Shown: one piece after another, positions 13,612 to 35,454 of the stretch | How the letters are laid out: each line of letters starts with the position of its first letter | Numbering within the stretch: the first letter of the stretch is position 1 | DNA from: an uncultured virus (IMG/VR IMGVR_UViG_3300031772_000017) | Taxonomy: Duplodnaviria > Heunggongvirae > Uroviricota > Caudoviricetes | Length of the DNA: 64,000 nt | IMG/VR virus record: IMGVR_UViG_3300031772_000017 | Reading direction: 5' to 3' (one strand) | Notes under the pieces: generated by a model | Database searches by the model: none | Seen by the model: only the letters and a program-made list of their open reading frames with translations | What the model was told of the DNA's origin: nothing | Program-made: the position numbers and the translations under genes

Positions 13612-13989
13612 TTACTGCGCCCCAGTCCACGATACGCGACTATGAACGGGGTCAGTAATGTGTCCTCTTGGAAAGTTCTTTGCAGGAGTTTTCCAGCTTG
13701 CCGCTTTATAGATGTTTCCCTTTGGATCAATAAATGAATGAGCGGAACGTGAAGGACCGTGGGCAGTAACTACGCGAGTATATTTTGGACCATGCTCAAA
13801 CGACACACTCATTCTATTATGCTCAGGAACAGGTTTCCCCTGATACCCTCGTTCATGATCGTTCACAATATGGTTTGCATAACGTGACAAATGCTCATCT
13901 CCATATTCACGCACTGCTGGCTTCTGTCCGAATGCTTCTTTCAGTTCGTGTTGTCCTTCTTCTGTGATGAAATCTCTAAAGTTTAACAT
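13612..13989 (-). CDS. hypothetical protein, candidate head internal protein
   Basis: N-terminus MLNFRDFITEE resembles the T4 capsid-targeting sequence; GPKYTRVV..SAHSFID..GNIYKAASWKTPAK domain. Confidence 0.7.
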   Translation of the reverse strand: MLNFRDFITEEGQHELKEAFGQKPAVREYGDEHLSRYANHIVNDHERGYQGKPVPEHNRMSVSFEHGPKYTRVVTAHGPSRSAHSFIDPKGNIYKAASWKTPAKNFPRGHITDPVHSRVSWTGAQ

Positions 13990-14975: not shown

Positions 14976-15911
14976 CTAACGATTCACTGCTTGATGATGA
15001 GCGTATGCTAATTCTGATGCAGACGCATCGACGTGTTGCGTCATATTTCTCCAATGTTGTCGGTCTTTATGTGGGACCGTATCCCAATATTTTTCATGAG
15101 CGGGTCGTGCTTCGTGTTCTTTTGCCATGTGATCGTCAAGATGCTGCTTGTATTGGTGGATGCTGTGAATGGAATTATGCGGGGTTTGTGTTTCATCTCC
15201 ATATCCATACTTGCCATGATGATAGATTCCATGTCCCCTATGAAGACCCCTGAACACGGGATTTTTCATCGATTCTTCGATGTGTGACTTGAGTGAATAC
15301 ATTAGTTCCTCTTTGAGCCCACTTAATGTTTTGCGTCGTACCATCGGCTTCATAATTGAACCTTTCCTTTTCTTTGGAAGCACTCCCGGCTCCCCCTGTG
15401 GACCGATACCGATTCCTGCGACGTTCCCCGCTCCTGCGGAGTTGACGATGCCCTCTTCTGCCATCGCAATGGGTCCTGTTGGACGTGTCGTGTCTGCACC
15501 CACAGCACCCTGTGATTCATATTCCTGTTCGCTTGCGTGATCGCTTCCTTCATCAGCACCATAGACTTCCGGGTGCAACTTATTCCAATCACGCATGAGC
15601 ATTCCCGCCATCGCATTCGCTTCATACTCCAACTCATCCAACGGCATATCAGGTGATCCATTCAAATGCTGTGCATCGTGGACAATTTCATGGGCAAGTG
15701 TGCGGAGAACGTCCGCCACATGCCGTCCTTCAGTCGCTACGATAATGCTTCCATCACCGGGGCGATAGGAACCGAAGGAAGTACTGCCTGTCTTATCCAC
15801 CAATGTCAATTCAGGATGCTCCGTGATACCTAATTGCGTGCAGACGTGAGCACAGAAATCATGGATATAATCCTCTAAGAATGGACCTTCCGATTCAATA
15901 AGAAATTGCAT
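14976..15911 (-). CDS. zinc metallopeptidase-like domain fused to low-complexity/His-rich modules
   Basis: LRTLAHEIVH (HExxH) followed by E.EANAMAG; then EEGIVNSAGAGNVAGIG..GEPGV and a His-rich tail. Confidence 0.7.
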   Translation of the reverse strand: MQFLIESEGPFLEDYIHDFCAHVCTQLGITEHPELTLVDKTGSTSFGSYRPGDGSIIVATEGRHVADVLRTLAHEIVHDAQHLNGSPDMPLDELEYEANAMAGMLMRDWNKLHPEVYGADEGSDHASEQEYESQGAVGADTTRPTGPIAMAEEGIVNSAGAGNVAGIGIGPQGEPGVLPKKRKGSIMKPMVRRKTLSGLKEELMYSLKSHIEESMKNPVFRGLHRGHGIYHHGKYGYGDETQTPHNSIHSIHQYKQHLDDHMAKEHEARPAHEKYWDTVPHKDRQHWRNMTQHVDASASELAYAHHQAVNR

Positions 15912-16700: not shown

Positions 16701-16946
16701 TTATGGTTTCTTTTCGGGAATCCTCTGCCCACCACGTTGACGGTATCCTAAAATGCTCGCGGCGTCATTCTGTTGATCTCCATATTTCCACATCGCACTC
16801 TTATCATGTTGCCCGATAGCTTTTTCTGCTTCTCCCGCATCCCTGAGAATGTAATGCAGTTCGGCATCTGACTTATGATGATAGGGGTGACCAGGAAGTA
16901 TATGATGCAATTTCTTCGCTTGTTCAAACAGTCTCAACATCTTCAT
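16701..16946 (-). CDS. hypothetical protein, candidate head internal protein
   Basis: MKMLRLFEQ N-terminus; GHPYHHKSDAELHYILRDAGEA module. Confidence 0.65.
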   Translation of the reverse strand: MKMLRLFEQAKKLHHILPGHPYHHKSDAELHYILRDAGEAEKAIGQHDKSAMWKYGDQQNDAASILGYRQRGGQRIPEKKP

Positions 16947-18813: not shown

Positions 18814-20370
18814 TTATCTCACACCTTGACTACCGCTTCGTGGGGAGGCTGTGTCCGGCATAGTTGTAAGTGAAGTATAGATGGGTTCTGATTGAAATTT
18901 ATCGTCCGCACCAGACCCTTTTACGTCAATTTTTCGCCCTTTTTTCTCAGGAGTCGGAGTATTGCTCTTTGCTACTGTTGGAATCGCACTTGCGGGCTTT
19001 CCTCCATCCTGCGTCGTTGTGGGTGCTGCTCCATCCTGTGGTTGTGGGGCGGGTGCATTGAACTTCTCTTTGTTCGGCTCATGGGCTCCCTCTTGATTCT
19101 GAGGAAGATTATCCTGCTTTTCACTCTTCCCGTTCTTCTTATCCTTCGCTGCTTGGAACGCTTCCTGCACAATCTTGTTATTGATCCCCTTATGACTTGC
19201 TTGGAATGCCGAAATCCTTCGCTCAGAAGTTTTCTGATGCTTCCCTGGCATCCGTCTATGCTGTCCACAATCACTCGCTCCGTGTTCTCCAGGTCCCAAG
19301 TCCTTCCCGCACTGACTACAGAACGTGTGTTCAAACTTCGCGCCTCCGCTCTCATCAAATGCAATATTGAACGCTTCATCTAAGTCCTTGCGTCGGGGTT
19401 CCTCGTACTTCCTAGATTTCTTTCTCACATGCTTGATGAACTTCGCTGGGTCTTTCCTCTGTTGGTTCATATAGAACGTGCGACGAGTGGATGCTTCTTC
19501 CAGCTTTCTATTTACAGTCGCTCGCGCCACAGAATGTGCTCCCCATTTTGACTGTTTTTCTCCTATTTTCTCCGCTTCATGGGGCTCTGAAGCATGAGGC
19601 ATATGGAAATCTCGGTCCTTTTGATCGATTACATGCCACTTTTGGGAGTTTGTTCCAAAGACAATCTTATGTCCTTTAGCTTTTGCATCCTGAATCGCTT
19701 GCTGGAATGACATACCAGGTGAAGAGGATTCCCCCAGTTGACTAAATGACTTACTCTCTCGTCCTGTAATCACAGTCTTATGAGCCGCAGACGTTTCCCT
19801 TGCATTTGCTGTGCTGTTTGTTTGTCGTGTCAAATTCTTCTTCTGTTTCTCCGCTTGATCCACAGGGGGTCTCTTTGGAGTCGCAAGCCGTTCATGATGA
19901 GATTGTTCTTCGCGGGGTGTCAAGGATTCTTTGATACCTGCAATAAATTTCTCAGGATGCTTGGTGCGGTACTTGGAGAACTTCTTATAATCAAACTTCT
20001 TCTTCGTTATACCTACACGGCGACGTTCAGCGGCCGTAGCATTGTAAAAGGACGTATTCCTTTTCTCTTCTTCCAGTCCAGCTTTATCCAATTTCATGTA
20101 ATAGTCTGGACGCTCTCCCAAGTGATCTAATGCAATCTCACGGGCTACGTCGAGCTTTGACGTGTGTTCCTGCTCAATCTTGATACCCCTTGCTAATTGA
20201 TCGTGAATATGTGAAACTGGCACATTATATTTCTTCGCAAGCGATTCAGGAGAATGAGTGGGTTTATCTAAAAGATTTTCTGACAGCAATGCCTTCTCGC
20301 GGTACGCATTGAAGATGGACTCCCTGATCGGAACGGTGAGTTCTTCTGCTAGTTGCTTAAAGCGTTTCAT
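18814..20370 (-). CDS. modular Lys/His-rich protein, candidate processed head internal protein (DUF5661-like module, Zn ribbon)
   Basis: Start MKRFKQLAEE; GIKIEQEHT..AREIALDHL.ERPDYY module; FCSQCGK; multiple L/I-x-E boundaries. Confidence 0.75.
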   Translation of the reverse strand: MKRFKQLAEELTVPIRESIFNAYREKALLSENLLDKPTHSPESLAKKYNVPVSHIHDQLARGIKIEQEHTSKLDVAREIALDHLGERPDYYMKLDKAGLEEEKRNTSFYNATAAERRRVGITKKKFDYKKFSKYRTKHPEKFIAGIKESLTPREEQSHHERLATPKRPPVDQAEKQKKNLTRQTNSTANARETSAAHKTVITGRESKSFSQLGESSSPGMSFQQAIQDAKAKGHKIVFGTNSQKWHVIDQKDRDFHMPHASEPHEAEKIGEKQSKWGAHSVARATVNRKLEEASTRRTFYMNQQRKDPAKFIKHVRKKSRKYEEPRRKDLDEAFNIAFDESGGAKFEHTFCSQCGKDLGPGEHGASDCGQHRRMPGKHQKTSERRISAFQASHKGINNKIVQEAFQAAKDKKNGKSEKQDNLPQNQEGAHEPNKEKFNAPAPQPQDGAAPTTTQDGGKPASAIPTVAKSNTPTPEKKGRKIDVKGSGADDKFQSEPIYTSLTTMPDTASPRSGSQGVR

Positions 20371-20371: not shown

Positions 20372-23300
20372 TTACCCCTTCTTTTCTCCAAGCACTCGTC
20401 GAATAGTGTTATAGGTCTCGGAATGTGCTTCATGAAGCTCAGTGTCATAATGAGGAACATTAGAACCCGATCCATACGTCAAGTGCTTCTTGATCGCACG
20501 ATGCACTTGAATAGCAGTCCTACCACCCAGATCATTGAGATGGACTTTTCCACCTTCATGGTGTGCAATTCCACTTCCACCCAACCAGTTTCCATGTAGT
20601 GTCTTTCCGTCCGTGGACAGCTTCTTGCTGGATGCTGACTGCTTGTTCAAGAATGCTTTAATGACTTTATGGGAACCTGCACCGATAGTCATTTCGTCGA
20701 GTTGTTCAGCTTCTTCATGGAACTTATATGTAGGAGCGTATGCAGTTCCGCGTCGTCCTTCCGGTCCAACAGCATCAAGTCTATTGTGCTTTCTTGTAAT
20801 GAATCCACCCACTTTATCTGCTTTCGCATATTCTTGTTTCATCTTAGCTTGTGCCTGATTATGATGAGGACCGCTGACTGCTTGGCGCTGATATTCGTCG
20901 CCTCGTTCGATTCTCGCATCATGCACCTTATGAGCAAGACCCAATGAGATTTCGTCGAGTTGTTCGGCCTCTTGCAACTTAGCAAGATGCTTCTTATGTA
21001 CAGTAATCAATCCCTTGAATCCCGCCTTAGGTCCCGACCACATTCCTGGGTTGTCCTTTAATGCTTTCTCTGCATCAGCAATACTCTTCCGAGACGATGC
21101 TGCATTGATGAATTTATGATCTCCCTCATCAAGTTGTTCCACTTCCTCTGATACACCCTTCTTATGTGCGGAGAACTTCTTCATCGCTTCTCCGTGTGTT
21201 CGTGCAGTGTCCCAAAAGTGCTTTCCTTGTTTGAATCCCTTAATATGGTAAACTCCATGCTCCTTATTCATATGGAAATGCGTGTTATCATCAACATGAT
21301 GTGACAACTTTGCACCCACCGCAAAGTCATACGCATCATAGGGCTTGCGTTCTTCTTCTAGCTTCCCTGCGGCACGGTGAATACCTTCAATACGCTTATC
21401 CCCCTTATGGAATGCCCTTTTAGCACGGCCGCCATATCGTGCAGATCGTGAGGAACCCTGGAGTATTTTGAGGCGCTCCGCTTCAATAGCATCATGTCCC
21501 ACACGCTCTTGCTGACGAAGATCGTATGCCGCTTTTCCGAGGTAATTCCTCAATGTACTCTTCTTGAGTTCGTTGAGTTGTTCCACTTCTTCTGAGTAAT
21601 GGTGTGCTGCGGTCGCTAGAGGCCACAACTTCTGATGCAAACGATACGATGCTTCATGGTGCTTATTGTGTCCATGCTTCTTGAGTTCGTCGGCATAGAA
21701 CTTCGCTTCAGACTTATCCGCTTCTGTCCCAAAGTGCTTCGCAAGATGCACGATGTTTGCCGTGTGTCGGTTCATCGATTCATTGCGCTTATACGTGCCC
21801 ATGAATGTTTCGTCGAGTTGTTCTGCTTCAGTCAAAGGAAGTGATGGGGTTGATTGTGCGTGTGTGGCGCCAGCATGTAATCGTCCATTTTTCTTAACCG
21901 CAAACTTTGTGTGTTTCAACCAATCAGCATCCGTTTCGTGATGTGGCTTATGGGATTGACCATTGGGCATGGGCTTTTCGGCCCATTGCGGCACATGTTC
22001 TTTGGTATATCGGTGCACATACGCATTCAATACATGGCGCTGATCGTCTGGGTGCAGAAGATGTCCTGATTTATATTCAACAGTTTCGTCGAGTTGTTCG
22101 GACTCTTCCAACTTCTCTACCGCATGTCTGATACCCTTGGTGCGCTTAAAACTTTTCTCTTGGTACTTCTCTGCTTCTTTATCATTCCCAACCATCCTCA
22201 TGTTACCTGATTTCACCATAAGGAGGTCCTTATTTCTCGCGGCACCACGTACATAACTTCCAAGTGTCGCTTTACTGAGTTCGTCGAGTTGTTCACTTCC
22301 TTCACGTACTGTCACATGCTTACGAGTACCCACAACGATTCTGTTTCCCCCAAAAACTTCTCCCTTTCCGACATTCACATGGACTTGACTGCCTTCAATC
22401 TTATGCACAGTGCCTTCGTGTCCTGCTCCACCCTTTTGTCCTAGTCCTAAATGAACTTTATCCCCCACTTGAAGGTCCTTATTTCTTGCGGCACCCCGTA
22501 CATAACTTCCGAGTGTATTTTTACTAAGTTCATCAATCTGTTCAACTTCTTCAGTAACTTTCTTCGTACCACACACTGGGCACGTCATACTTCCTTTTGT
22601 GAAAACACGCACTCTTCCACACTTCCCACAATGCTGTAAGTGCCCCTGTTCAAGTTCCTTTTCTCCCTTTGGATCATCCGTCAAGTGTGCAGGAAGTCGG
22701 CTTGTCATAGCAGTTTCATAGTTGTACTTAGACTCTGCGAGTTTCTTCGCTCTCGCTGTTGCAGTTGCATACATCATATTGTCGTATTTGTAGTTTTCTT
22801 CTAATTTTCTAAGATATTTATTGATAGTATAGCGGCCTTTTTGCGCTCCACCCAACTCTAGTTGCTTTTTGGTTTCTTTCGCGTCAGCCGCGGTCGCATG
22901 GATTGAATGAGCAACCCTCTTCTGTTCATCATACACGTGGTGCACGACGATCTTTCTAGATTCGGAGAGTTCCTTCGCTCTCGCTGTTGCAGTCGCATAC
23001 ATCACATTCTTGGCACGTTCACCATAATGTGACTTGAAACTCTTGATAGACTTCTTCATACCATGGACGATATCTTCCTTCTTCTCTGACTCAGCGGGAG
23101 TCAAAGTCTTTTCCTGCAACAGTGATTTTTCATTCATCAATACACTCTTCACTGCTTCACTCATGAGTGTCGGTTTCTTTGTCACCGTAATCTCTGGGTG
23201 GTAGTCGTGAGCTTGCACCAACATTTTCTTATATTCAGTTGGGTCCAAATGAGTTGCGGTCCGAAGCGTATCAATCTTCTTACCATGCAAATGCACATCA

Positions 23301-24673
23301 TACACATGTGGATAATTCTGCATTTTGGATTCTTCCAAGGATTTCTCCTTCTTCTCAACGCGAACTTTCGACCACAGGTGCATGGGGATTCCTTCGGGGT
23401 GCGAGTGGCTGCCCACGCTGACAGTTTTCTGCATGGCTTCGGACCTGTCCTTAGCTTCTACTTCGTGTTTGTTGCCTAAGTGATCCGTAACATTCCAAAC
23501 ATGCTCTGAAACAAACTGTGCGTTTTCGTGTTGCTTAATCCTTTGATCGCTCCATCCCATTTTCTTGAGATGTCTGCGGGATTCCTCTTTGTCCATCCCA
23601 CCCATCACGCCCACCATAGCATCGGGCATTCTAAGGGTTTTCTTGGCAATCTGTGTCTGGTGATAATCGAATACGTTTTTTCCTTCTCCTAGCATCGCGT
23701 CCTCCACTTTCTCTGGTAAAAATCCTTGTCTATTCTCAGGGCTGTGAGGAAATAATCTCTTCAACCATTTGCTCTTATTGGTGTCAGGGTGATGCTCCTT
23801 CTTCCCGTCCTTCTCCGCTCTCTTTACTGGGGCAGTTTCCTTGCTCTCATCCTCTTTTTCCGTGATGTGGTGTTTCTTTGCAAATGCTAGTGTGGCCGCT
23901 TTACGTGAGTTGAAAAGTTCATCATAACTTGCTGTATGCTCCGGCTCTGTCACCTTCGTCACTGGCACTTCTTTAGCAGCAGTTCTTTTCACCCCCAAAT
24001 GAAGCGTCATCTGACGGGTTTCCTTCAACTGTTCCTCTTGGTGTCTCTTATCTACTTCAGCTTTCGCCCGTTCATATCCCAAATGAGGACCCGGTCCTTT
24101 TCCTATCGTCGCACATTTTACTGCCGCAGTTCCTTGATTGCGATATACTTCAAAGTGTCCTTTAGGGTGTGAACGAACAGTATAATTACCTTTTTCATAA
24201 AGTATATTCTCTGTGATAGATTCTTCCTTCAACTGATCCTCTTTAGACGCATCCGGCACAGTCAACTTCACAGACACGGCTTTGCTACCATGTCTCTTCT
24301 CGATCTTCTTATGAGCCTCAGACTCGGATTTTGCAGTCACATATTGACCCTGGTGACTACCCCCCATGTGATAGAAGTAGGATTCTTCGTCTAATTTTCC
24401 AGGATGAATGTCCTTAATATGCTGATTTACGCGAGCGATTTCTTCCGGCGACAACGTGGGATTATTGAACTGAACATGGTGAGGAGACACGACATGGTTA
24501 TAGCGAATAGGAGTGACTTTCGTACCATGCAGGACATCGTGATTACCATGAAAGGAGTGCGGAACGACATACGTTTTTCCGTTAATCGTACCCGTATAAT
24601 GTACGTCCGTTTTCGTGGCGCGTTGAAACTTCGGTACAAATTCTTCGTTACGCATTTGCTTAAAAGACTTCAT
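20372..24673 (-). CDS. 1433-aa modular His/Lys-rich protein with repeated EQLDE linkers, candidate head-packaged polyprotein
   Basis: Uninterrupted ORF; AGGAG RBS; start MKSFKQMRNEE; eight EQ(L/I)(D/N)E motifs plus many LxE sites between dissimilar modules. Confidence 0.85.
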   Translation of the reverse strand: MKSFKQMRNEEFVPKFQRATKTDVHYTGTINGKTYVVPHSFHGNHDVLHGTKVTPIRYNHVVSPHHVQFNNPTLSPEEIARVNQHIKDIHPGKLDEESYFYHMGGSHQGQYVTAKSESEAHKKIEKRHGSKAVSVKLTVPDASKEDQLKEESITENILYEKGNYTVRSHPKGHFEVYRNQGTAAVKCATIGKGPGPHLGYERAKAEVDKRHQEEQLKETRQMTLHLGVKRTAAKEVPVTKVTEPEHTASYDELFNSRKAATLAFAKKHHITEKEDESKETAPVKRAEKDGKKEHHPDTNKSKWLKRLFPHSPENRQGFLPEKVEDAMLGEGKNVFDYHQTQIAKKTLRMPDAMVGVMGGMDKEESRRHLKKMGWSDQRIKQHENAQFVSEHVWNVTDHLGNKHEVEAKDRSEAMQKTVSVGSHSHPEGIPMHLWSKVRVEKKEKSLEESKMQNYPHVYDVHLHGKKIDTLRTATHLDPTEYKKMLVQAHDYHPEITVTKKPTLMSEAVKSVLMNEKSLLQEKTLTPAESEKKEDIVHGMKKSIKSFKSHYGERAKNVMYATATARAKELSESRKIVVHHVYDEQKRVAHSIHATAADAKETKKQLELGGAQKGRYTINKYLRKLEENYKYDNMMYATATARAKKLAESKYNYETAMTSRLPAHLTDDPKGEKELEQGHLQHCGKCGRVRVFTKGSMTCPVCGTKKVTEEVEQIDELSKNTLGSYVRGAARNKDLQVGDKVHLGLGQKGGAGHEGTVHKIEGSQVHVNVGKGEVFGGNRIVVGTRKHVTVREGSEQLDELSKATLGSYVRGAARNKDLLMVKSGNMRMVGNDKEAEKYQEKSFKRTKGIRHAVEKLEESEQLDETVEYKSGHLLHPDDQRHVLNAYVHRYTKEHVPQWAEKPMPNGQSHKPHHETDADWLKHTKFAVKKNGRLHAGATHAQSTPSLPLTEAEQLDETFMGTYKRNESMNRHTANIVHLAKHFGTEADKSEAKFYADELKKHGHNKHHEASYRLHQKLWPLATAAHHYSEEVEQLNELKKSTLRNYLGKAAYDLRQQERVGHDAIEAERLKILQGSSRSARYGGRAKRAFHKGDKRIEGIHRAAGKLEEERKPYDAYDFAVGAKLSHHVDDNTHFHMNKEHGVYHIKGFKQGKHFWDTARTHGEAMKKFSAHKKGVSEEVEQLDEGDHKFINAASSRKSIADAEKALKDNPGMWSGPKAGFKGLITVHKKHLAKLQEAEQLDEISLGLAHKVHDARIERGDEYQRQAVSGPHHNQAQAKMKQEYAKADKVGGFITRKHNRLDAVGPEGRRGTAYAPTYKFHEEAEQLDEMTIGAGSHKVIKAFLNKQSASSKKLSTDGKTLHGNWLGGSGIAHHEGGKVHLNDLGGRTAIQVHRAIKKHLTYGSGSNVPHYDTELHEAHSETYNTIRRVLGEKKG
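20693..22543. repeat. dispersed in-frame 15-bp repeat TTCGTCGAGTTGTTC (encodes EQLDE on the minus strand)
   Basis: Identical copies at 20693, 20951, 21809, 22085 and 22280; variants at 21125, 21569 and 22529. All spacings (258, 174, 444, 240, 276, 195, 249) are multiples of 3. Confidence 0.9.
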
Positions 24674-24681: not shown

Positions 24682-26445
24682 TTATTTGATATCTGACTTA
24701 AATTTCTTCAACGTTTTCTTAGGTCCGGCAGTCGCCTTTCCATTATTCGTCGTGTCCTGTGTTTCTGAAGGGCTGCCTCCGAGAATAGGCGCTCCACCTT
24801 CCATGCTATCCACGACTGGCTCACTCTCCGCAAGCAAGCGTGATCGGAAGAGTCGGAAGTCAATGGGACCATGAGGAAGCGAAGCATCTGTATCAAACAG
24901 TTGCTCAAAATCCTCATTGAGCTTCTTCTTTGCGGACTTCTTCTCGTCCTTCTTCTCAGGAAGCGGCTTCAATGCTTTCTCTTTTTCAATCAACCGATCA
25001 TGCACAGTCAAGTGACTGACACGACCAGCTTTTCCATAACGTCCCTTACCATAATACTGCAATCCAAGCTTCTGTGCGTCTTCCTTCGCTTGCGAATCGG
25101 CTGGTGGAGGAGCAACTTTTGCTTGTTGTTTCTTGTTCCCCACAGGGGCTTTTGCAATCTTGCTCAAGTGCTTATGAATCCAGATCGCGGCATTCTCCGA
25201 TTTCGGAGGTGTCTGGGTGAACTTCTTCACCGTCTTGTGCAAGTCGTCTAATTCTGCTGTTTTCTGTCCTGCAACGTCAGGGTCCGCATTCTGTCTCAAG
25301 TCCTCATCATTATTGAATTCGTGATAGTGTTCTCCACCGAATTCCTTTGCGAGCTTCACGCGAGAATCCTGTGCTTTGCGCCACTTTTCTGCACGAAGCT
25401 TCTCAGGAATGACACGTCCACCCCTTTGTCCTCGTTCAACGTTACGATTGCGGCTCACATTGTCGGAAGCGTCCACGAATACCATCTTACTGTCGTAACC
25501 CAACGCTTCCAGCTTATCTTTGATCTTCTTAATATGTGCGTGATCTGCGGAAGTACTGTTAATAATCAATCCGTTACGTCCATGAATCGCTAAGCGTTGG
25601 CGTAAATCCTGAAGGGACTTTGCTTTCTGACGATGTACATTGCGTCGTTCCTGTTCACTTTCCGGCATCTTCTTGTCAAGATGTTCTTTCGTCGTCAAGT
25701 GATCCAATGCTGTATCAGAGTTGATCTCCGTCAATCCATGTCCGTCAAGAGCTTTCTTGAGGACAATATCCTTACCAGAACCTGGGGCTCCTGCAAGGAA
25801 CACCGCTTTGAAAATTCCTGCATCATTGACGTGTTCTGTGAGCAATTCTTCTTCCTTAATTGGTTTTAATTTTTTGATTAAGGCGTCAATCTGTTTTCGT
25901 GTTTCTTTTTGAGCCGGAGAATTAGGGAACTGTCTTAACGCTTTATTCTCCAATTTAGACAATTCTAGTGTACGCCATGAACTTTTCCACGGCTGTCCTT
26001 TCAAAGAGTATTCTTTTTTTTGGAAAAGAGACTCTGCAAAAGTTTCCGCAACATTTTTTCTAAAGGAGTTGGGATATTCTTTCGTTGCCGCCAATGCTTC
26101 AAGTACATTAGCATGGATTATGATAGCGGGAATTGTTGACTCTGCACTAAGATTCAGTAAAGCTAAGAATCTGTGCTGTCCATCTATGATGTAGTGATCC
26201 TGGGACACCAAAATCGGTTCGTCGAGAGCATCGCTTTGTGGTCCCATGAGGTTTCTGATTTTAGACTCGTTGAAGTCCCCCTGAGTAAGAGAGAGGGAGT
26301 CCACCGGAATCTCTGCATAAGTGGAATCAATGTTCTTCTTAAGCCTAAGCCAATGGAGAAAATCGGGGATATCAGAGGATGTGACTTGAGGTAGAGACGA
26401 GCGTTCGATGTTTAGCCCGTTTTGTGGTAAATACAGTGAATTCAT
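24682..26445 (-). CDS. ParB/Srx-like domain fused to a zeta-toxin-like P-loop kinase and C-terminal modules
   Basis: PILVSQDHYIIDGQHR (ParB-like); FKAVFLAGAPGSGKD, EINSD, RNRNVERGQRGGRVIPE (zeta/AAA_33 kinase-like). Confidence 0.8.
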   Translation of the reverse strand: MNSLYLPQNGLNIERSSLPQVTSSDIPDFLHWLRLKKNIDSTYAEIPVDSLSLTQGDFNESKIRNLMGPQSDALDEPILVSQDHYIIDGQHRFLALLNLSAESTIPAIIIHANVLEALAATKEYPNSFRKNVAETFAESLFQKKEYSLKGQPWKSSWRTLELSKLENKALRQFPNSPAQKETRKQIDALIKKLKPIKEEELLTEHVNDAGIFKAVFLAGAPGSGKDIVLKKALDGHGLTEINSDTALDHLTTKEHLDKKMPESEQERRNVHRQKAKSLQDLRQRLAIHGRNGLIINSTSADHAHIKKIKDKLEALGYDSKMVFVDASDNVSRNRNVERGQRGGRVIPEKLRAEKWRKAQDSRVKLAKEFGGEHYHEFNNDEDLRQNADPDVAGQKTAELDDLHKTVKKFTQTPPKSENAAIWIHKHLSKIAKAPVGNKKQQAKVAPPPADSQAKEDAQKLGLQYYGKGRYGKAGRVSHLTVHDRLIEKEKALKPLPEKKDEKKSAKKKLNEDFEQLFDTDASLPHGPIDFRLFRSRLLAESEPVVDSMEGGAPILGGSPSETQDTTNNGKATAGPKKTLKKFKSDIK

Positions 26446-26490: not shown

Positions 26491-26498
26491 TATTTATG
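26491..26498 (-). promoter_or_regulatory. putative T4-type late promoter (CATAAATA)
   Basis: One mismatch to the gp55 consensus TATAAATA; intergenic, at the head of the virion-protein block. Confidence 0.6.
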
Positions 26499-27245
26499 TT
26501 ACAGCGGCTTTTGGCAACGGACCCAAATCCACTGGGGGTGTAAGTCATGACACGGTTCAGTGAAGATGTGATCGAATCCCACAAACCCATTATCTTCGAT
26601 GTCCTTCTTGAGGTCTGCGACGTTCTCCACACGGACATCTGGGTTGTCGCTCGCATCAAATCCATGGAAGTAATCAACTGAATGAGTGTGTCCGGGTCCA
26701 AATCCCATCTGAAAACAGAAGAACCCCCCCGGCTTGAGGATTCTGAGAAATTCCTTATATAAGTCCAGTCGCCATTCTCGGCACGAAATGTGCTGCATAC
26801 AAATGACGGAGAAGACAACATCATAAGTGTCATCGGCGACCATAGGCAAGGAATGTCCGTCTGTCAGATACAAATTGGGCACAGGAATGCCTGCGCTCCC
26901 CAAGTTCAGGGGAACTTTTGAGAGAATCCCAGGTGAACGATCTGCCCCGTCGATACGGGCAAAGTAATTCTTGAACTTAATCATGTTGCGACCTGGTCCG
27001 CAACCATACTCAAGAGCGAGCTTATTCTGCATGATGGGGGTGCCGCGGAATAAGAGTTCTTCGTTCTTGTCTGCGTTGTGAGCGTCGTACCATCCCACAA
27101 CAGGCTCCCGATTCTCCAATGACCATCTTGCTGCCTCACGTTCCAGAAGGTTCTGGAAATGATCCCCCGTTTCGGGTACTACAGGAGTCGCACTCACACT
27201 CTGCGTTTCTGTGTTGTATACGAATAACGACATCTTCTCGTCCAT
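26499..27245 (-). CDS. class I SAM-dependent methyltransferase
   Basis: LEYGCGPGR, GAD, YDVVFSVICMQHI, RILKPGG. Confidence 0.88.
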   Translation of the reverse strand: MDEKMSLFVYNTETQSVSATPVVPETGDHFQNLLEREAARWSLENREPVVGWYDAHNADKNEELLFRGTPIMQNKLALEYGCGPGRNMIKFKNYFARIDGADRSPGILSKVPLNLGSAGIPVPNLYLTDGHSLPMVADDTYDVVFSVICMQHISCREWRLDLYKEFLRILKPGGFFCFQMGFGPGHTHSVDYFHGFDASDNPDVRVENVADLKKDIEDNGFVGFDHIFTEPCHDLHPQWIWVRCQKPL

Positions 27246-27248
27246 AAT

Positions 27249-27860
27249 CTAGTCCCTCCAATACGCAATATCGATTTCGGAATTGTCCTCATGCACATAA
27301 TCTACACGCTGCTTGAATCCCGCACCTGCTAGGAACGTGGACATTGACGCGAACGTGTTGTCCACATCAGTTATATAGACAGGCACTTGATACGTGACTT
27401 CGCAACGTCCAGACTTCACATTCTGAATCCAATCTCCCAAGCTCTTGAGTGCGAGCAAGTCATTACCCTGGCAGTCCGTCCACAGAAAATCGATATGATC
27501 GATCCCGTACAGTTCCAACAACTTTGCGAAGTTGATCGTATGGACTACGATCTTTCCAGTCATGCCACGCTGATACTGCCAATGCTTTTTGAGAGCGGTC
27601 TGAAGCAAGTCGGGGTGCAGAGGATAGAGGCTATTGATCCCTCGTTCGTGATCCATGATGTGAAACTCTTTGATCGCATCAGTCGTATCGACGGCAAACG
27701 GCCAGAGCGTCACGCGAGGATCATCTTTGAATCGCTGCACCAACTTCGCAAAGAGGAACGGGTCAGGTTCCGCTGCATATAGTTTATCGGGATTGTGCGC
27801 GCCCAAGAGTTTTGCTGTATCATCTCCATTGTTCGCTCCGATTTCTACCACAATTTTCAT
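27249..27860 (-). CDS. FkbM-family methyltransferase
   Basis: VEIGANNG, AAEPDP, IDFLWTDCQGNDL. Confidence 0.85.
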   Translation of the reverse strand: MKIVVEIGANNGDDTAKLLGAHNPDKLYAAEPDPFLFAKLVQRFKDDPRVTLWPFAVDTTDAIKEFHIMDHERGINSLYPLHPDLLQTALKKHWQYQRGMTGKIVVHTINFAKLLELYGIDHIDFLWTDCQGNDLLALKSLGDWIQNVKSGRCEVTYQVPVYITDVDNTFASMSTFLAGAGFKQRVDYVHEDNSEIDIAYWRD

Positions 27861-27961
27861 AATATCTCCTAATCGTTCCGCGTTTGGTTGATTGCTTCAG
27901 CACACAGTCGAGTTAATTCCTCGGTGTCGTGCAGCAAGAAGAATCTCAGCGTTGAGGTCCA

Positions 27962-28504
27962 TCACATTCCCGGTTTCCAAAAAGTGATATCAGGAGTATA
28001 GCTCTTGTTCACTGTATAATCCCATGTGAAAGTGAATCCATGATCCAACAACCATCCGGCTACGTTCGATTTCAAATCCTGGTAAATAGCAATTCGTCCT
28101 CGTTCCACGTCCTTAAAACGCTCCGCTAAACTCTCAAGACAATTCTCTTCACAGAATGGAGCATCAATGCGGAGATAGTCAATCTTCTCAATCCCATACA
28201 GAGACATAAACGTATCGAGTCGCATCGTCCACGTCAATCGAAAGCTTTCGGGTTTATCCGTTCGGAAGAAGGGATTCACAAGAGTACTTTGTCCATTGGG
28301 ATATTTGAACAATGGTTCTTGATTATCCCCCAGGTCGACCGCAAACGGAAGCAGCGTGAGTCGAGGATATGATCGTGACTTTATCTGCAAGTCTCGAAAC
28401 TTCTCAACATCAGGTTCAAACGCATAGACATTCGCCTCTGCATTCGCAAGAAAATGAAACGTCTCAATCCCTTCATGCGCCCCGACTTCAACAATCGTAC
28501 TCAT
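27962..28504 (-). CDS. FkbM-family methyltransferase (divergent paralog)
   Basis: VEVGAHEG, YAFEPD, RLDTFM..IDYLRIDA. Confidence 0.8.
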   Translation of the reverse strand: MSTIVEVGAHEGIETFHFLANAEANVYAFEPDVEKFRDLQIKSRSYPRLTLLPFAVDLGDNQEPLFKYPNGQSTLVNPFFRTDKPESFRLTWTMRLDTFMSLYGIEKIDYLRIDAPFCEENCLESLAERFKDVERGRIAIYQDLKSNVAGWLLDHGFTFTWDYTVNKSYTPDITFWKPGM

Positions 28505-29154
28505 GTGTCCCTCTTAATGATCCAATACCTCCGCTGTCCCTGTCGGAAATATCCACTGTTCTTTTCTTCCCAATCATAGTAATGGGCGCCTCCATTAGGG
28601 GGAATATTCAATTCAGGTACATCATAGCGATTCCATGTTGCGCCCAACGATTCAACACAATTCTGGAAGTTGTTTGCCGACATCACTGTACCGATACGAT
28701 TCACTGCATGATCGTATTGATCCATCTCATGTTTCTTCTGCTCATATGTAGGATCGATCAAATCAATGATTTCCGTTTCAAGACATAGTATGGGGGCTAA
28801 CTTCAAACAACACGCTAAATCCTGCTTCCAGTTATCGAGGTGATAGAGCAATCCCCAATGAACGATTAAATCAAAGGGCCCCGGCACGGTCCACTCCTTA
28901 TCCTGATCCACTAGATAGGCTTCAAACCCATCCTCTTTCATGAAGTCCACGAAGAATTGTCGTCCATCTGTAAAGACAGCTTCAGCCCCTAATTTTGCAA
29001 GCAATCGTCCGTTGTTCCCATGCCCACAACCCACGTCAAGGATTCGTTTCCCTGGAAACCAATCTGCTCCCAATACTTGCACAAGTACATTGACCCGTGC
29101 AGCGTTCCATTGATCGCAACTCTCATGTTGAAAATAATCATGCTTCGTCGTCAT
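28501..29154 (-). CDS. class I SAM-dependent methyltransferase
   Basis: ILDVGCGHG, FDLIVHWGLLYHL; GGAG RBS before MTTKHDY. Confidence 0.85.
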   Translation of the reverse strand: MTTKHDYFQHESCDQWNAARVNVLVQVLGADWFPGKRILDVGCGHGNNGRLLAKLGAEAVFTDGRQFFVDFMKEDGFEAYLVDQDKEWTVPGPFDLIVHWGLLYHLDNWKQDLACCLKLAPILCLETEIIDLIDPTYEQKKHEMDQYDHAVNRIGTVMSANNFQNCVESLGATWNRYDVPELNIPPNGGAHYYDWEEKNSGYFRQGQRRYWIIKRDT

Positions 29155-29155
29155 C

Positions 29156-29962
29156 TTAAACTCCATCGTATGCCGTGATATTGTATTTGGTTGTCGACCA
29201 AGGGTACCAATCTATCTCTGGAAAACTGGGGGTGTATGTCGCAACTTCTGGCCCATTGTTATTCAGCGCATGCCCCCACTTCTTCTGATAGTACGCTTGA
29301 GCACGAAGCAACGTCTTGTTTCTGTCGCGTCCATCTTCTGGTTGAATCCGTTCCATGTGCCAGTGGACGTTTTCATAGTTCGGGTCACACGCTTTGCTGT
29401 TCAGTTCTGTGCGAATCGCCTTCTGGATACCAATGGGATTCATGGTGAATCCCCAGTCATGCGTATCTTCAATACTCATTCTCATCTTGTCGTATCCCGA
29501 ATGAAAGACTCGCTTCATGAAATCGGCATCCCCGCAATAGGGAGAACAGAATCGCTCATCCCAATACCCCGACTTTCTTAACACATCCAACGTGATATAG
29601 TAGAACTGATCTCCCGCTGGACCCCAAATAAAATCGTAGTGCTTGCGCCATTCTCTCAACCATGTCGCAAACTCAGGATGAATGTATGTATCATCTTGAA
29701 TACAGGCTATGTTGTTAGAATGTTGCAAGGCTTTGAGAAACACACTATTCCAACTTCGCGCATTCCATAAGTTCGATTCGTCTGTGTTCAAACTATTGAC
29801 AACAACTCGATCCACATAACTTTCTGACTCAAGGGAAAGAGATACGAGAGAATGGTTCGACATGACATTGGAACGAATGCCCTGTCGTCCTAATTCTGTC
29901 ACTAGACGATTGAGTGCTACAGGACGATTGAACGTCAGAATCCAGGTTGATAGATTATCCAT
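29156..29962 (-). CDS. GT-A fold glycosyltransferase-like protein
   Basis: Start MDNLSTWILTFNRP; ARSWN, IQDDT, GYWDERF, GDADF. Confidence 0.7.
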   Translation of the reverse strand: MDNLSTWILTFNRPVALNRLVTELGRQGIRSNVMSNHSLVSLSLESESYVDRVVVNSLNTDESNLWNARSWNSVFLKALQHSNNIACIQDDTYIHPEFATWLREWRKHYDFIWGPAGDQFYYITLDVLRKSGYWDERFCSPYCGDADFMKRVFHSGYDKMRMSIEDTHDWGFTMNPIGIQKAIRTELNSKACDPNYENVHWHMERIQPEDGRDRNKTLLRAQAYYQKKWGHALNNNGPEVATYTPSFPEIDWYPWSTTKYNITAYDGV

Positions 29963-31157
29963 TGATGAGCCCCCATTCCTTGATTGCTTCGTGATACTCT
30001 TTCCCGTATGTATGATCGATGGCCTGACGCATCGCGTGACACCCCGCAAGCGTTCCCCCTGGATGCCCGTGCAGTGCGCCTCCAACATTTGCCATATAAT
30101 CATTACCAACATTCTTTGTGACATGATTGACAAGTCCTGGGTGCATTCCACACGACAACGCGGGAAGCACATTATGGGAGTGCAGCAAGTCCATGACACT
30201 TTTCAATTCCTTGGTATCTTCTTGCATGTATCCACCAAACATCCCCGCATGGATAGAGTCAACTCCCGCAAGGGCAGCAAGTTGACACATCGCATACCAT
30301 GACATACCAAACGCATTTTTGCTATGGGTGATAACTTTATCCCCGCTCTTTTGATAGTGCAGGAACAATGGAAGGTTCAGTCGGCGAATGGAATGATACG
30401 CACCCAATCCACTCCAGAAATTGATATGCACCCCATTCGCACCTTCTTCAGCAAGGAACAACGCTCGCTTCTCAATCACATGTGGGTCTCCGTTAATCGA
30501 GAAGCAATAGACAACTTTACGACCACACTTATGTAAATAGCTTGTGATGATCGGCACTCGTTCTTCCAAGCTACAGAATGCGGGATTGGAAAGGATTTCA
30601 TCTTCCTTGATGAAGTCCACGCCACCATCCACCAACTCTTTCACCATGTCTAGCAATTGATTCGGGCGTAACCCAGTCTTGGGCTTGATGATTCCTCCGA
30701 AGATGGGCTTATCGTATTGCCCGGTGAGCGCACGGATACCACGGATACCGTACTTAGGTTGCTGGAAATGTTTACGCACCGATTCAGGAATTTGTAATGA
30801 CTCAATGCGACAATGAGTGATATGGGCAATGTCGGCTTGCCCACCAAGAATTTGGCACATGAGATGGGCAATACCATCCCCCTCCCAATCGGTGTTGATG
30901 ATCGGGAAAGCAATTTTTATCGTTGGTCGTTCTTCTCGGTATTCTGAATCGAAGTCGGTATGTAATACCAGACACGCATGGTTCTCAAACAGTTCATCCG
31001 TTTCCCAGTGATTGCGGATATTGGGGTTGCCCATGCTCTGCCCGATAGCCAAATCAAATGCTGACTTCTTGACGCTGTGAGTGCTATCAAGTTGATAGGA
31101 AACAACTAGATACTTCTCAGGGTCAATAGAACTCTCATCACGAAAAATATTAAACAT
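29955..31157 (-). CDS. RuBisCO-like protein (form IV, RLP)
   Basis: GGIIKPKTGL, GGVDFIKEDE, PALSCGMHPG, NVGGALHGHPGG..AG..AMRQA; several carboxylase residues are substituted. Confidence 0.9.
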   Translation of the reverse strand: MFNIFRDESSIDPEKYLVVSYQLDSTHSVKKSAFDLAIGQSMGNPNIRNHWETDELFENHACLVLHTDFDSEYREERPTIKIAFPIINTDWEGDGIAHLMCQILGGQADIAHITHCRIESLQIPESVRKHFQQPKYGIRGIRALTGQYDKPIFGGIIKPKTGLRPNQLLDMVKELVDGGVDFIKEDEILSNPAFCSLEERVPIITSYLHKCGRKVVYCFSINGDPHVIEKRALFLAEEGANGVHINFWSGLGAYHSIRRLNLPLFLHYQKSGDKVITHSKNAFGMSWYAMCQLAALAGVDSIHAGMFGGYMQEDTKELKSVMDLLHSHNVLPALSCGMHPGLVNHVTKNVGNDYMANVGGALHGHPGGTLAGCHAMRQAIDHTYGKEYHEAIKEWGLING

Positions 31158-31196
31158 TGCAAATTTCCTTTCCGCTTTTCTTATAGATCACATAAC

Positions 31197-31517
31197 TCAT
31201 ACCAAATACTTATCTCCTATCACAGAAGGCACTTTCACCACCACGATGGTACTCTTTTCATGCACGATGCAATCACTCACTTCATCTTTCTCGAAAATGA
31301 AAATATCCCCAGGCACTAAGAGTCGTCCGTTACACGTCATGGACCCACTCACAAACACATTCATCTCTTCAACCAAGTGATGATAATGTAATGGTATATA
31401 GGCACCCTTCTCATGGATCATCACAGAAATTTCAAACTCAGTCGTGCGAATCAGTGAAGGCTCAAAGTCACCGATGATCCATCCATTCTTAAATTCTTCC
31501 AACCGACGCATTCTCAT
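31197..31517 (-). CDS. cupin-fold protein
   Basis: GWIIGDFEPS, HYHH..EEMNVFVSG, GDIF, VVVKVPS. Confidence 0.8.
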   Translation of the reverse strand: MRMRRLEEFKNGWIIGDFEPSLIRTTEFEISVMIHEKGAYIPLHYHHLVEEMNVFVSGSMTCNGRLLVPGDIFIFEKDEVSDCIVHEKSTIVVVKVPSVIGDKYLV

Positions 31518-32887
31518 GTATGATGCTCCCTCAAATAATGATTCAAGTCCTCTGGTGTTCCAAGGGACCACATTTTCTGAATGTTCTTCACACGAATCTT
31601 CTTCCCATCAGCAATCGCTTCATTGTAGACAGGACACACATAGAATTCATTATTGACACGAATGTTCTTCGTCATCATTTGTTCTGCGTACTTCACAAAG
31701 TCTGATCCATGCGTCCAGTAATAGAGTCCCACTGTCGCATCATCGGAAATGACTTTCTTCTCCGCAACTTCACTGACAAATCCTTGCTCATCCACTTTCG
31801 CAAACGAATATTGAGGATGGACGGACTTAAACGTGATAATGCCTCCATCGATCCCTGCTGCGGAGAACGCATATAAGCATTCATTGGAGTTCCATTCTAC
31901 CGATTGATCGGAGTTCGCAATCAACATGGGCTGCTCGTTGTCGATGAGTGACTTCGCAAGGAGTACCGTACACGCGGCTCCCTCTGTCACTCCATCTGCT
32001 TGCACGATATCGCACCCAGGAGCGACCATGTTCAGCATGTACTTGAGTTGATACTTCTCATAGTGCGCTTTCTGCACGATGAATATATAGTGCGCATCAA
32101 TATTGAGACTTTCCTTAACAACTTGGATCATTGGTCGTCCGTTGACTTCAATCAGGGGCTTCGGGAATGTATATCCCGCTGTAGCAAAACGCGACCCATG
32201 ACCCGCCATTGGTACAATAACGTTCAACTTCTTGTCACGCCAGGGAATCGTCTTATGAACAATCCCCCTGAAGTAGTCAGCAATAGTCTCACCGAGGGCA
32301 TGGTTGACTTCAGAGGGGTCACAAACGGGAATCAAGTGTGCGCCCGAGGCTATCGCTCCCTCACGTCCTATATGCGAATCCTCCACAACGACTGTGTTAT
32401 TCACGTCCGTCTTGAGGGCAATCATGCACTTCCAGTACATCTCAGGAAACGGTTTAGGGTGTCGTACATCTTCATTGGACACAAAATAGTCTACTTGTTC
32501 CATCACTCCTAGACGACTGAGGGCCATCACTAATGTCTGTCGAATACTATTGGACGCAACGGCAATCTGAATTTGTTCCATTTTGAGAATTTCAAAAATA
32601 GAACAAAGATCACCGTCACGCTGAATATTCTCATAAAGTTCTACAGTGTAGCGTTGTTTGGATTTCCATATCTGATCGTAGAACGTCGCAGGTAATCCCT
32701 TTTCTTTCGTGAGAAGCAACAGTTTCTTCGTTGTCGGTAATCCATCGTACTTGGACAAATGCTCATCCCAGGAAATGATGAACTTATGACTCACATCCGA
32801 CAACGCTTGATTCAGAGCTTTGAAGTGAAATTCTCTTGAGTGAATAAGTACACCGTCCAAGTCGAAAATGACCAATTTATTTCGCAT
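31514..32887 (-). CDS. HAD phosphatase/phosphomutase fused to a sugar-phosphate nucleotidyltransferase
   Basis: N-terminal FDLDGVL, ASNS, KPFPE, VEDS; C-terminal VPMAGHGSRF..PKPLI, TEGAACT, IANSDQ, EKKVIS, NEFYVCPVYN, LGTPEDL. Confidence 0.9.
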   Translation of the reverse strand: MRNKLVIFDLDGVLIHSREFHFKALNQALSDVSHKFIISWDEHLSKYDGLPTTKKLLLLTKEKGLPATFYDQIWKSKQRYTVELYENIQRDGDLCSIFEILKMEQIQIAVASNSIRQTLVMALSRLGVMEQVDYFVSNEDVRHPKPFPEMYWKCMIALKTDVNNTVVVEDSHIGREGAIASGAHLIPVCDPSEVNHALGETIADYFRGIVHKTIPWRDKKLNVIVPMAGHGSRFATAGYTFPKPLIEVNGRPMIQVVKESLNIDAHYIFIVQKAHYEKYQLKYMLNMVAPGCDIVQADGVTEGAACTVLLAKSLIDNEQPMLIANSDQSVEWNSNECLYAFSAAGIDGGIITFKSVHPQYSFAKVDEQGFVSEVAEKKVISDDATVGLYYWTHGSDFVKYAEQMMTKNIRVNNEFYVCPVYNEAIADGKKIRVKNIQKMWSLGTPEDLNHYLREHHT

Positions 32888-33494
32888 CTCTATGTACCTT
32901 ATTATGTCTCACTACGGACAACGGGTTGCACACAATCTCTGCCTTGTCACGTACACGAAGCGACCATTCAACATCTTCTGGTGAACCTGGGGGCATGGCT
33001 TCGTTGATGGGATTGTCTCTGAGGAAGTCTCGCTTCACAAGAAAATACCCACCACTGATATACTGATACTTAGTCTGACTCCAATCCTCATAGTCGAGCG
33101 AATGGTACCGCGGGAGTGTTGGATGATCCCACAGCACCCAGTCAGTGAAATGTCGTTTGCCGTTGAGCAGATATTGAGGATTTGAACAGATACCCCATTT
33201 ATCCCCGAACCTATAATATCCTTCATACCACTCAGGATCAAACACATAATAATCATGGAGCAACACCAGGTTTTCGTATTGCGCCAACTTCGCCACAAGA
33301 TTTTTCTTCTTCGGTAACCACCCATCCGATAACACATGCTGTACTAGAGGATTAACACCCGAATGATCGTTCGCGTATGATCCCGCCACTAGAATTTCAA
33401 ATTTTGGAATCTTCAGTGCATTGATCGACTCAATCACGGCATTTAATCGTGGGATATCATCATAAATTGTCATGATCCCGAATGTCATTTGCAT
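32877..33494 (-). CDS. GT2-like glycosyltransferase
   Basis: TFGIMT, KKKNL, LLHDYY, ISGGYFLVK, EDVEWS. Confidence 0.75.
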   Translation of the reverse strand: MQMTFGIMTIYDDIPRLNAVIESINALKIPKFEILVAGSYANDHSGVNPLVQHVLSDGWLPKKKNLVAKLAQYENLVLLHDYYVFDPEWYEGYYRFGDKWGICSNPQYLLNGKRHFTDWVLWDHPTLPRYHSLDYEDWSQTKYQYISGGYFLVKRDFLRDNPINEAMPPGSPEDVEWSLRVRDKAEIVCNPLSVVRHNKVHRDAK

Positions 33495-35397: not shown

Positions 35398-35425
35398 AAT
35401 ATCCTCATGATTAAAGTAGCTTTCT

Positions 35426-35454
35426 AGTATAGTGGAATTAGAAGGAGGTGTCAA
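35426..35454 (-). promoter_or_regulatory. sigma70-like promoter heading the glycosylation/RLP operon
   Basis: TTGACA-17 nt-TATACT. Confidence 0.8.

Follow-up and report, generated by a model that had tools for sequence, protein, structure and literature searches.

A putative head-cargo polyprotein of about twenty small modules in a T4-like sediment phage

Can a tailed phage load a whole string of small proteins into its head from a single gene? The question is raised by a long open reading frame (ORF) in a stretch of 64,000 nucleotides (nt), hereafter the window, from an uncultured member of the Caudoviricetes (IMG/VR record IMGVR_UViG_3300031772_000017), whose gene content is that of a part of a T4-like myophage genome with the genes on the minus strand. 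A preliminary description of this DNA had reported a protein of 1433 amino acids (aa) starting MKSFKQMRNEE, and had read it as a chain of small domains that is packaged into the prohead and cut apart there. The ORF, here called polyprotein A, is present as described and lies on the minus strand, which had not been stated. We consider it probable that it encodes a late head-cargo polyprotein that would be cut by a gp21-type protease into small internal proteins, some of them being injected. That the chain is packaged and cut at all appears very likely, judging from its sequence.

20372..24673, minus strand: polyprotein A, 1433 aa, about 21 modules; the main subject, in a T4-like sediment phage
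22529-22543, 22280-22294, 22085-22099, 21809-21823, 21569-21583, 21125-21139, 20951-20965 and 20693-20707, minus strand: the eight EQ(L/I)(D/N)E linkers, spanning 20693..22543

In T4, the prohead protease gp21 cuts after L/I-X-E, and the first ten residues of the internal protein IPIII target it to the head (PMC9026906, PMC9958956, PMC3012670). All eight EQ(L/I)(D/N)E linkers reported earlier were recovered, at aa 711, 794, 859, 951, 1031, 1179, 1237 and 1323; shuffles of the protein (n=2000) contained at most one. The [LI]xE pattern occurs 27 times in polyprotein A against 12.3 +/- 3.1 in the shuffles, none of the 2000 reaching 27, and the looser [LIVMF]xE is just mildly enriched (35 versus 26.6, reached in 79 of 2000 shuffles). 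The remaining linkers that had been listed (LDEE, LKE, LGE, LEE, LQE, LSE, LAE and LHE) are likewise all present, and the protein is indeed rich in Lys (11.6%) and His (7.5%).

The chain was cut after the EQ(L/I)(D/N)E and [LI]xE sites and a few V/M/F-x-E sites, which yielded 22 pieces, of which 20 are modules of 49-88 aa and the other two are short (21 and 15 aa). That the window's own module cores contain no LxE is circular, as the modules were cut at those sites, and was set aside. The isoelectric point (pI) lies between 8.1 and 10.4 in 19 of the 20 modules, M7 being the exception (pI 6.6). Many joints carry two sites six or seven residues apart, so that cutting both would remove an acidic spacer. 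Five of the six EQLDE linkers are encoded by the identical 15 nt (given the codon use of this gene, the chance is 0.015 per copy), which points to the linker DNA as a crossover point.

The modules had been called unrelated. Several unrelated domains do stand in the one chain, with an architecture shuffled between relatives, but several modules are paralogues. M14 is nearly a copy of the start of M13 (81 nt, 83% identity), the end of M9 recurs in M11 (52 nt, 88% identity), and an M14 profile matches M13 (2e-6) and, weakly, M17 (0.26). The M13 start, M14 and, more weakly, M17 and M20 form one module family. Of two folds suggested by eye, the zinc ribbon has its CxxC..CxxC pattern in M12 (aa 648-708), but the Pfam zinc-ribbon matches stay below threshold (best E 0.008); the KOW/SH3-like unit could be located in M13, but its only family match is ProQ_C (E 0.41). 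Polyprotein A as a whole (P0001) matched no Pfam and no PHROG family at E 0.01, and a PDB sequence search came back empty. When the modules were scanned singly against Pfam and PHROG, M9 matched phrog_12788 (1e-7) and phrog_727, M14 matched phrog_5709 (0.005), and weak zinc-ribbon matches appeared; no module carried a named family. The module map is as follows, with counts among 172 relatives and with two alleles, L001 and L080, that are described below.

24641..24673, minus strand: leader MKSFKQMRNEE, whose residues 1-7 resemble the T4 capsid-targeting sequence
24386..24640, minus strand: M1, aa 12-96, alpha/beta domain, in 45 of 172 relatives and usually first
23711..24385, minus strand: M2-M5, aa 97-321; M4 has six relatives and M5 three
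23156..23683, minus strand: M6 (helical), M7 (beta-beta-alpha-beta) and M8, aa 331-506, in 34, 17 and 15 of 172 relatives
22961..23110, minus strand: M9, aa 522-571, helical hairpin, the most widespread unit (86 of 172 relatives)
22550..22960, minus strand: M10, M11 (a partial copy of the M9 end) and M12 with CxxC..CxxC, as read from the sequence
22301..22528, minus strand: M13, aa 716-791, LSKxTLGSYV start and KOW-like unit, missing in alleles L001 and L080
22103..22279, minus strand: M14, aa 799-857, of the recurring basic LSKxTLxSY...GIxxAxxKL family; a diverged copy in L001
21827..22084, minus strand: M15, aa 864-949, predicted to fold independently; missing in L001, a stand-alone gene in unrelated phages
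21353..21808, minus strand: M16 and M17, aa 956-1107, missing in L001
20969..21352, minus strand: M18 and M19; M19 and one linker (174 nt) are missing in L001
20429..20950, minus strand: M20 and M21; M21 is also found in prohead-core genes and as a 98-aa monomer

The strongest indication that these units behave as modules comes from natural alleles. Contig L001 is 99.47% identical to the window over 10,062 nt upstream of the gene and 99.56% over 9,777 nt downstream, and encodes an allele of 1168 aa. It is without aa 711-793 and aa 1179-1236, has a different 57-aa module of the LSKxTL family in place of aa 864-1103 (M15-M17), and gains a C-terminal module past a new LKE site. All of its breakpoints coincide with linkers. 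A metagenome scan with M18 returned one further allele, L080, with the same layout as L001, and three weak matches. Four of the 24 runs listed as holding the gene, all of them sediment metagenomes with no RNA run among them, were examined as contigs, which report presence only. The joint 20957-21132, a 174-nt skip between two linkers, occurs in runs X9 and X14, the large replacement at 21364-22131 in run X9, and the window's own form in runs X12 and X16. Between the two copies of M14, synonymous divergence (pS) is 0.62 and nonsynonymous divergence (pN) 0.03; within flanks that are 99.5% identical, this indicates import of a diverged copy. Whole modules are thus added, dropped and swapped in frame, and recombination at the repeated linker DNA would be the route. 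In contig L009 (9971-11751), the syntenic polyprotein is broken within M16 and the M8 module lies in the next ORF, by insertion, rearrangement or assembly error.

Does the same architecture extend beyond close alleles? A word-index search returned 33 proteins among 7,998 scored candidates. HMMER with the L001 allele (P0002) matched 2231 clusters (50% identity) at E 0.001, 294 at 1e-10 and 30 at 1e-30. From the proteins returned, 172 entered the analysis, with three nearly identical alleles and two M15 monomers set aside, and 121 of them had a module match. Projected module starts fall exactly after [LI]xE in 112 of 241 cases compared with 1.6% of random positions. This start-only test, in which the preceding linker lies outside the query, was relied on instead of a test of both ends (79/197), which includes the linker in the query. 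Across 157 relatives of at least 300 aa, [LI]xE occurs 1574 times against 841 expected, and in 90 of them the count is above the 95th percentile for shuffles of the same protein. What persists at the boundaries in divergent relatives is L/I at P3 and E at P1, with varying flanks (LDE, LEE, LAE, LSE, LKE, LHE). Inside homologous module copies, which are related and not independent, the pattern is depleted (19 versus 65 expected), with no internal LxE in 86 copies of M9 or 45 of M1. Modules in common with contigs L007-L009 are under purifying selection (pS 0.73-1.00, pN 0.14-0.31, 11 comparisons; M1: pS 0.74-0.92, pN 0.14-0.23). The syntenic polyprotein gene varies from 449 to 1433 aa, and the operon is syntenic in records G002-G004 and in the cultured phage HTVC008M. 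Fourteen module pairs occur in both orders among the relatives. The search for modules in other contexts that the preliminary description had proposed found stand-alone, reordered and core-gene copies.

Some chains carry M21 with other junction motifs, K-x-A-S/A/D in L066 2771-4666 (from the 416-kb record G010) and KKNP in P0109; M21 also occurs in such chains in L070, P0159 and P0172. Neither G010 nor G011 has a match to PF03420. This suggests that other groups of phages combine M21 cargo with head proteases of a different kind.

Structure prediction was run on aa 1-571 and on M15. As had been expected of a polyprotein, AlphaFold2 (AF2) returned separate domains and no fibre or continuous repeat. 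The model of aa 1-571 (38 sequences) has a low overall predicted TM-score (pTM 0.31) with M1, M6, M7 and M9 confident: the per-residue confidence (pLDDT) is 80-97 over most blocks of M1 and about 85-97 in M6 and M7. It is low in M2, M3 and M5, where the alignment is empty, and helices run across some linkers. The N-terminal part fits beads on a string. M15, modelled from 33 aligned sequences (30 of the 38 loci were represented, after removal of duplicates and of truncated or overlong entries), folds alone with pLDDT 89.2 and pTM 0.77, so that the models show independent folding in five modules (M15, M1, M6, M7 and M9). The M15 model has no fold match in PDB (best Z 2.6), BFVD or VIA-wide, which is not proof of a new fold. 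Fold searches with aa 1-571 gave only phage look-alikes of M9 and background Z scores, among them, for the M7 region, Z 5.1 with ribosomal eL20-like chains and Z 4.1 with 2wnm 'Gp2' (50 residues aligned at rmsd 3.0). M15 and M21 searched in the ESM Atlas scored under 0.8 or had no usable match.

M15 is also the module that connects the chain to early genes. A single-sequence scan for its loci found nothing; an alignment-based scan succeeded, and in 34 of the 38 viral loci M15 is a stand-alone gene. In the T7-like phage 3MF5 it is ORF03 (91 aa), which follows the host promoters; the next gene is annotated as anti-restriction. Fifteen of 148 neighbours of stand-alone M15 have a Pfam match, including one Dam, two GP88 and one DUF932, and guilt by association for M15 is weak. 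M21 exists as a 98-aa monomer with a short leader; a word-index search for stand-alone M21 gave no candidate. A kinship of M21 with a family of small early phage genes such as Suzuki gp8 was also considered; profile comparison put this at a probability of 0.2% and does not support it.

The proposed capsid-targeting leader stood up at positions 1-7, MKSFKQM compared with MKTFKEF in T4 IPI and MKTYQEF in IPII and IPIII (NC_000866), a resemblance in sequence only. At the key residues 4 and 7 of the T4 targeting sequence it resembles them, with Met replacing Phe at 7. Further along, residue 8 is Arg and not I/L, and residue 10 is no canonical cut site. That positions 4, 7, 8 and 10 have a role in T4 is taken from PMC9026906. 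Close relatives have LAE, VAE or MAE at residues 8-10. At the other end of the chain, a short amphipathic peptide of the type HSxTYxTIxRVLxE (20384-20428, minus strand, aa 1416-1430) recurs near the C-terminus of many relatives; leader-like in pattern, it is perhaps a second core-binding signal.

The head genes themselves are seen in relatives. Record G002 (135 kb) has the syntenic polyprotein together with an intact gp20-gp67-X-gp68-gp21-gp22-gp23 module. Its gp21 matches PF03420 at E 4e-32 and begins with a LIKE site, and its gp23 has LSE where T4 gp23 has LTE. A gp21 (Peptidase_S77) is also present in three of five records that carry M21. The polyprotein modules reach into the core genes: in L061, L062 and L063, core gene X, which directly precedes gp68, has M21 inserted between LxE sites; G002 carries a different, KOW-like unit at this place, and in L064 M21 stands behind a gp67-like start. 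In G002 (L012 13345-14010 and 9526-10716), the gp67-like gene and the N-terminal part of gp22 hold extra basic modules between LxE sites. L064 belongs to a complete 145-kb phage (record G009) in which gp20 is spread over two ORFs and one TAG falls within the match to gp21, which hints at a recoded stop codon.

A link to virions comes from M9, which is found in 56 cultured phage records. Its profile matches the start of the T4-GC119 protein, S-SM1 gp115, at 4e-12, and this protein was detected in S-SM1 virions with 13 counts (PMC3037559, Table S8; we assigned the columns of the supplement tables from the text and gene sizes). T4-GC119 is present in 15 of 16 genomes and varies in length from 276 to 2985 nt, and the T4-GC190 cytidylyltransferase, which relatives of our phage carry in the first gene of the operon, was also found in S-SM1 virions (PMC3037559).

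The operon and its surroundings bear on when the chain would be made. The polyprotein gene sits between gp41 and primase, outside the gp20-gp23 head module.

26491..26498, minus strand: late-promoter-like motif CATAAATA, some 50 nt ahead of the operon's first gene
24682..26445, minus strand: operon first gene, 587 aa, ParB-like with a Zeta-toxin/AAA_33-type P-loop kinase (PF06414 E 7e-12, PF13671 E 1e-10; phrog_12810, 2859 and 1033)
18814..20370, minus strand: polyprotein B, which counts 518 aa when started at the ATG at 20370 and opens with the leader MKRFKQLAEE; built like polyprotein A, with DUF5661 among its parts
16701..16946, minus strand: single-module gene, 81 aa; the module lies inside polyproteins of 8 of 172 relatives (52-70% identity)
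13612..13989, minus strand: 125-aa gene with a leader resembling a capsid-targeting sequence, MLNFRDFITEE, and DUF7717; a monomer like the T4 internal proteins, at the end of the cluster
61575-62120: gp55 late sigma factor (phrog_234, E 9e-57)
T4-like setting of the window, genes on the minus strand: UvsW-type helicase, gp55, gp47/46, gp45, gp44, RegA, gp43, UvsX, gp41, primase, ThyX and NrdA

The motif CATAAATA lies 43-52 nt upstream of the orthologous first gene in all four relatives examined (L001, L007, L008 and L009), and in G002 it also precedes gp18, gp19, the gp67-like gene and gp22. We take TATAAATA to be the T4 late-promoter consensus. Its exact form is not enriched across the window (1 versus 1.55) and sigma-70 scans were at chance, and the late-promoter argument uses positional conservation alone. 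The first gene of the operon is itself modular: L007 (1350-3335) and L009 (7983-9971) have a cytidylyltransferase and a kinase, and the L008 orthologue (7401-9803) has all three domains (cytidyltransferase PHROGs). LxE sites mark the domain borders in this gene and its orthologues, which possibly encode packaged enzymes released by gp21. Polyprotein B shares modules with the polyprotein A of relatives. Together, M15, the 81-aa gene, M21 and the DUF7717 gene indicate that modules move between monomer and polyprotein states; neither M21 nor the 81-aa gene had a tblastn match among cultured phages.

Three further features of the window were noted. A 311-aa gene (14976-15911, minus strand) has an N-terminal HExxH-like metallopeptidase motif by eye, with no family match, and a basic, His-rich tail past an LKE site whose length varies among relatives. 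Just upstream of the operon, 26499-36064 (minus strand) holds methyltransferases, probable glycosyltransferases, a HAD/nucleotidyltransferase and a RuBisCO-like protein (PF00016, E 2e-42, 29955-31157), likely a DNA or surface modification cluster, which differs among relatives. The gene at 1318-2817 (minus strand) encodes a nicotinamide phosphoribosyltransferase (phrog_448, E 2e-192), which belongs to a phage pathway of NAD salvage.

Taken together, we propose that polyprotein A would be expressed late as a head-cargo polyprotein, that its leader would bring the chain into the prohead core, and that a gp21-type protease would cut after Glu at exposed L/I-x-E linkers, often twice per joint. About twenty mostly basic proteins of 50-90 aa would be released and remain beside the packaged DNA; their small size would let them exit by way of the portal, as T4 IPI does. 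The contents would be a mixed kit of paralogous basic units and folded domains known from the early genes of other phages, which for M15 is observed. Cargo and filler roles are likely mixed: M9 and the units of the M13/M14/M17/M20 family probably bind the core or DNA, and M15-type folded domains probably act in the host in the first minutes. There is fair reason to expect that at least some modules act in the host; that most of them are anti-defence proteins is doubtful. In its boldest form, which we consider somewhat less likely than not, the proposal is that a widespread T4-like group runs a protein-level cassette array, in which small early-gene domains captured from unrelated phages are slotted in frame at a 15-nt linker that is both recombination point and protease-site code, and one signal loads, releases and injects a re-programmable anti-defence and takeover kit before the phage expresses its genes.

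The interpretation offered at the outset has thus survived in part. Module gain, loss and reordering, separate folding, sharing with core genes, the late motif, gp21 in G002 and a virion protein with M9 all favour its structural half; the injected anti-defence cocktail is plausible but has no family match behind it, several basic units are paralogous, and the cut site of the leader is missing. Several other observations count against the head-cargo reading. The window contains no head genes and gp21 is seen in relatives only; a gp23 match is missing from the nearest record, G001 (21 kb), which tells nothing about the phage. The leader reads R-N-E at residues 8-10, the first [LI]xE coming at aa 94-96, and an M-x-[ST]-F start is found in just 31 of 172 relatives, many others starting with gp67-like helices. 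M2, M3, M10 and M19 have no relative among the 172, module order is kept in 340 of 397 pairs, and L/I-x-E occurs internally in 14 of 33 copies of M16 and 5 of 25 of M21. T4-GC119 went undetected in Syn9 virions, and since the scaffold protein gp22 was likewise detected in those of S-SM1 (PMC3037559), virion detection is no proof that mature modules are retained. On the side of function, the Pfam and PHROG searches of the modules and the fold searches with the models of M15 and aa 1-571 gave no match to known anti-defence or host-takeover proteins, and a scan of 53 relatives found no known anti-defence family and no conflict domains of polyvalent proteins (MPTase, ART, PBECR, LPD, helicase and others). 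M15 is the sole module firmly shown to stand alone in unrelated small phages, its 148 neighbours in 24 loci include only one ArdA and one sub-threshold Lar, and the window's M15 has Ala where at least 90% of the aligned family has Cys.

The leading alternative is an elaborated prohead-core filler, packaged and cut, whose pieces would only fill or size the core, neutralise DNA charge or are cleared, with no host target and with shuffling as tolerated drift. The basic character of 19 of the 20 modules and the paralogy of the commonest units speak for it, as does the presence of modules within gp67-like, core and scaffold genes; the relatives P0064, P0067 and P0176 are little beyond a gp67-like N-terminus and tandem LSKxTL units. 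T4 gp68 consists of an acidic part, an LNE site and a basic tail, gp22, gp67 and gp68 are broken down by gp21 into small peptides (PMC9958956), the T4 internal proteins touch DNA phosphates with their lysines (PMC3012670), propeptides of giant phages are cut at several sites and then cleared (PMC10052503), and no effector family was recognised here. A filler, however, needs no conserved, separately folding domains with pN far below a saturated pS, and neither avoidance of internal cut sites nor a domain used elsewhere as an early gene. T4 IPII and IPIII, too, were once held to be core fillers and turned out to be nuclease inhibitors (PMC9026906, PMC12373910). We regard a pure filler as rather unlikely.

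Might the chain instead never be cut? An uncut polyvalent protein, packaged or cytoplasmic, in which EQLDE is a spacer or core-binding helix spread by recombination, would find its precedent in phage polyvalent proteins, which carry 2-15 domains per chain and are in some cases packaged unprocessed (PMC5512222). The identity of the linker DNA reflects copying that could spread any motif, and the AF2 helices do cross some linkers. Yet the boundary residues that persist are exactly L/I at P3 and E at P1, sites are depleted inside modules, and an exposed L/I-x-E in a prohead containing gp21 would be expected to be cut (PMC9026906), all of which makes this alternative improbable. Still further down the scale is a late protein outside the virion or an assembly artefact of repeats. 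The assembly is uncultured and short repeats can confuse assemblers, but the same ORF is found in the independent contig L002 (99.99%) and in a protein cluster of ten members (P0003), 16 of the 24 listed runs hold at least half of its words (three of the 16 possibly being the source), 2231 clusters match P0002, and the operon is syntenic as far as HTVC008M. An artefact is thereby largely refuted. Against a non-virion role, relatives of two genes of the locus type occur in S-SM1 virions (PMC3037559), and the two possibilities together are very improbable.

Should the head-cargo reading be correct, tailed DNA phages would arm their virions by a polyprotein strategy, and the T4 internal-protein arms race would grow from three genes to shuffled arrays. 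Long hypothetical proteins of environmental T4-like phages, 2231 clusters of which match one allele, would be strings of small proteins with predictable boundaries, and genes that defy annotation would become a list of candidate injected effectors open to test. The chain would also show a natural way of packing several proteins into a phage head under a single signal. If the cassette-array version holds, thousands of modules delimited by L/I-x-E would form a ready-cut library of candidate anti-defence proteins. Cultured cyanophages carry M9, which makes the idea testable now.

How, then, does polyprotein A compare with known systems? To the extent of the full-text literature covered, there is no account of internal-protein polyproteins cut by a prohead protease, as the preliminary description had supposed, though a passing mention in some phage proteome study may have escaped notice; the available parts of PMC9503650 and PMC7824862 do not describe this architecture. 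Among published ideas, polyvalent proteins come nearest (Iyer et al. 2017, PMC5512222), with many domains per chain, shuffled architecture and predicted packaging and injection. In contrast to polyprotein A, polyvalent proteins have mostly large enzymatic domains and, in the parts of that account available, no stereotyped protease linker, and none of their domains occurs in P0001. With T4-GC119 (S-SM1 gp115, Syn9 gp114; phrog_727), polyprotein A shares M9, basic character, modularity and variable length; T4-GC119 and T4-GC190 differ in genome position and in most modules, and PMC3037559, as far as available, annotates them merely as structural or hypothetical, with no processing or modular model. 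T4 gp22, gp67 and gp68 and the head propeptides of SPN3US and phiKZ resemble it in their many protease sites and alternating acidic and basic stretches, and modules are common to such genes in relatives. Whereas parts of those proteins are cleared, the parts of polyprotein A are conserved, separately folding domains that avoid internal sites; the gene also has no PHROG or Pfam match to the gp22/gp67/gp68 families and lies outside the gp20-gp23 module.

The closest likeness is to the T4 internal proteins IPI, IPII and IPIII (Ip1-3), which are injected and inhibit type IV restriction enzymes, the GmrSD nucleases (PMC9026906, PMC12373910). Polyprotein A has no sequence match to them. It shares with them a leader like the capsid-targeting sequence, L/I-x-E sites, small basic products (predicted here), a T4-type head module in relatives and high variability. 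The T4 proteins have one leader and one short propeptide for each small mature protein and gene, whereas in polyprotein A a single leader precedes about twenty-one modules in one ORF, with internal sites and exchange at linker DNA. In its architecture and probable processing, polyprotein A thus probably works like the T4 internal-protein system, except that one gene would yield many proteins.

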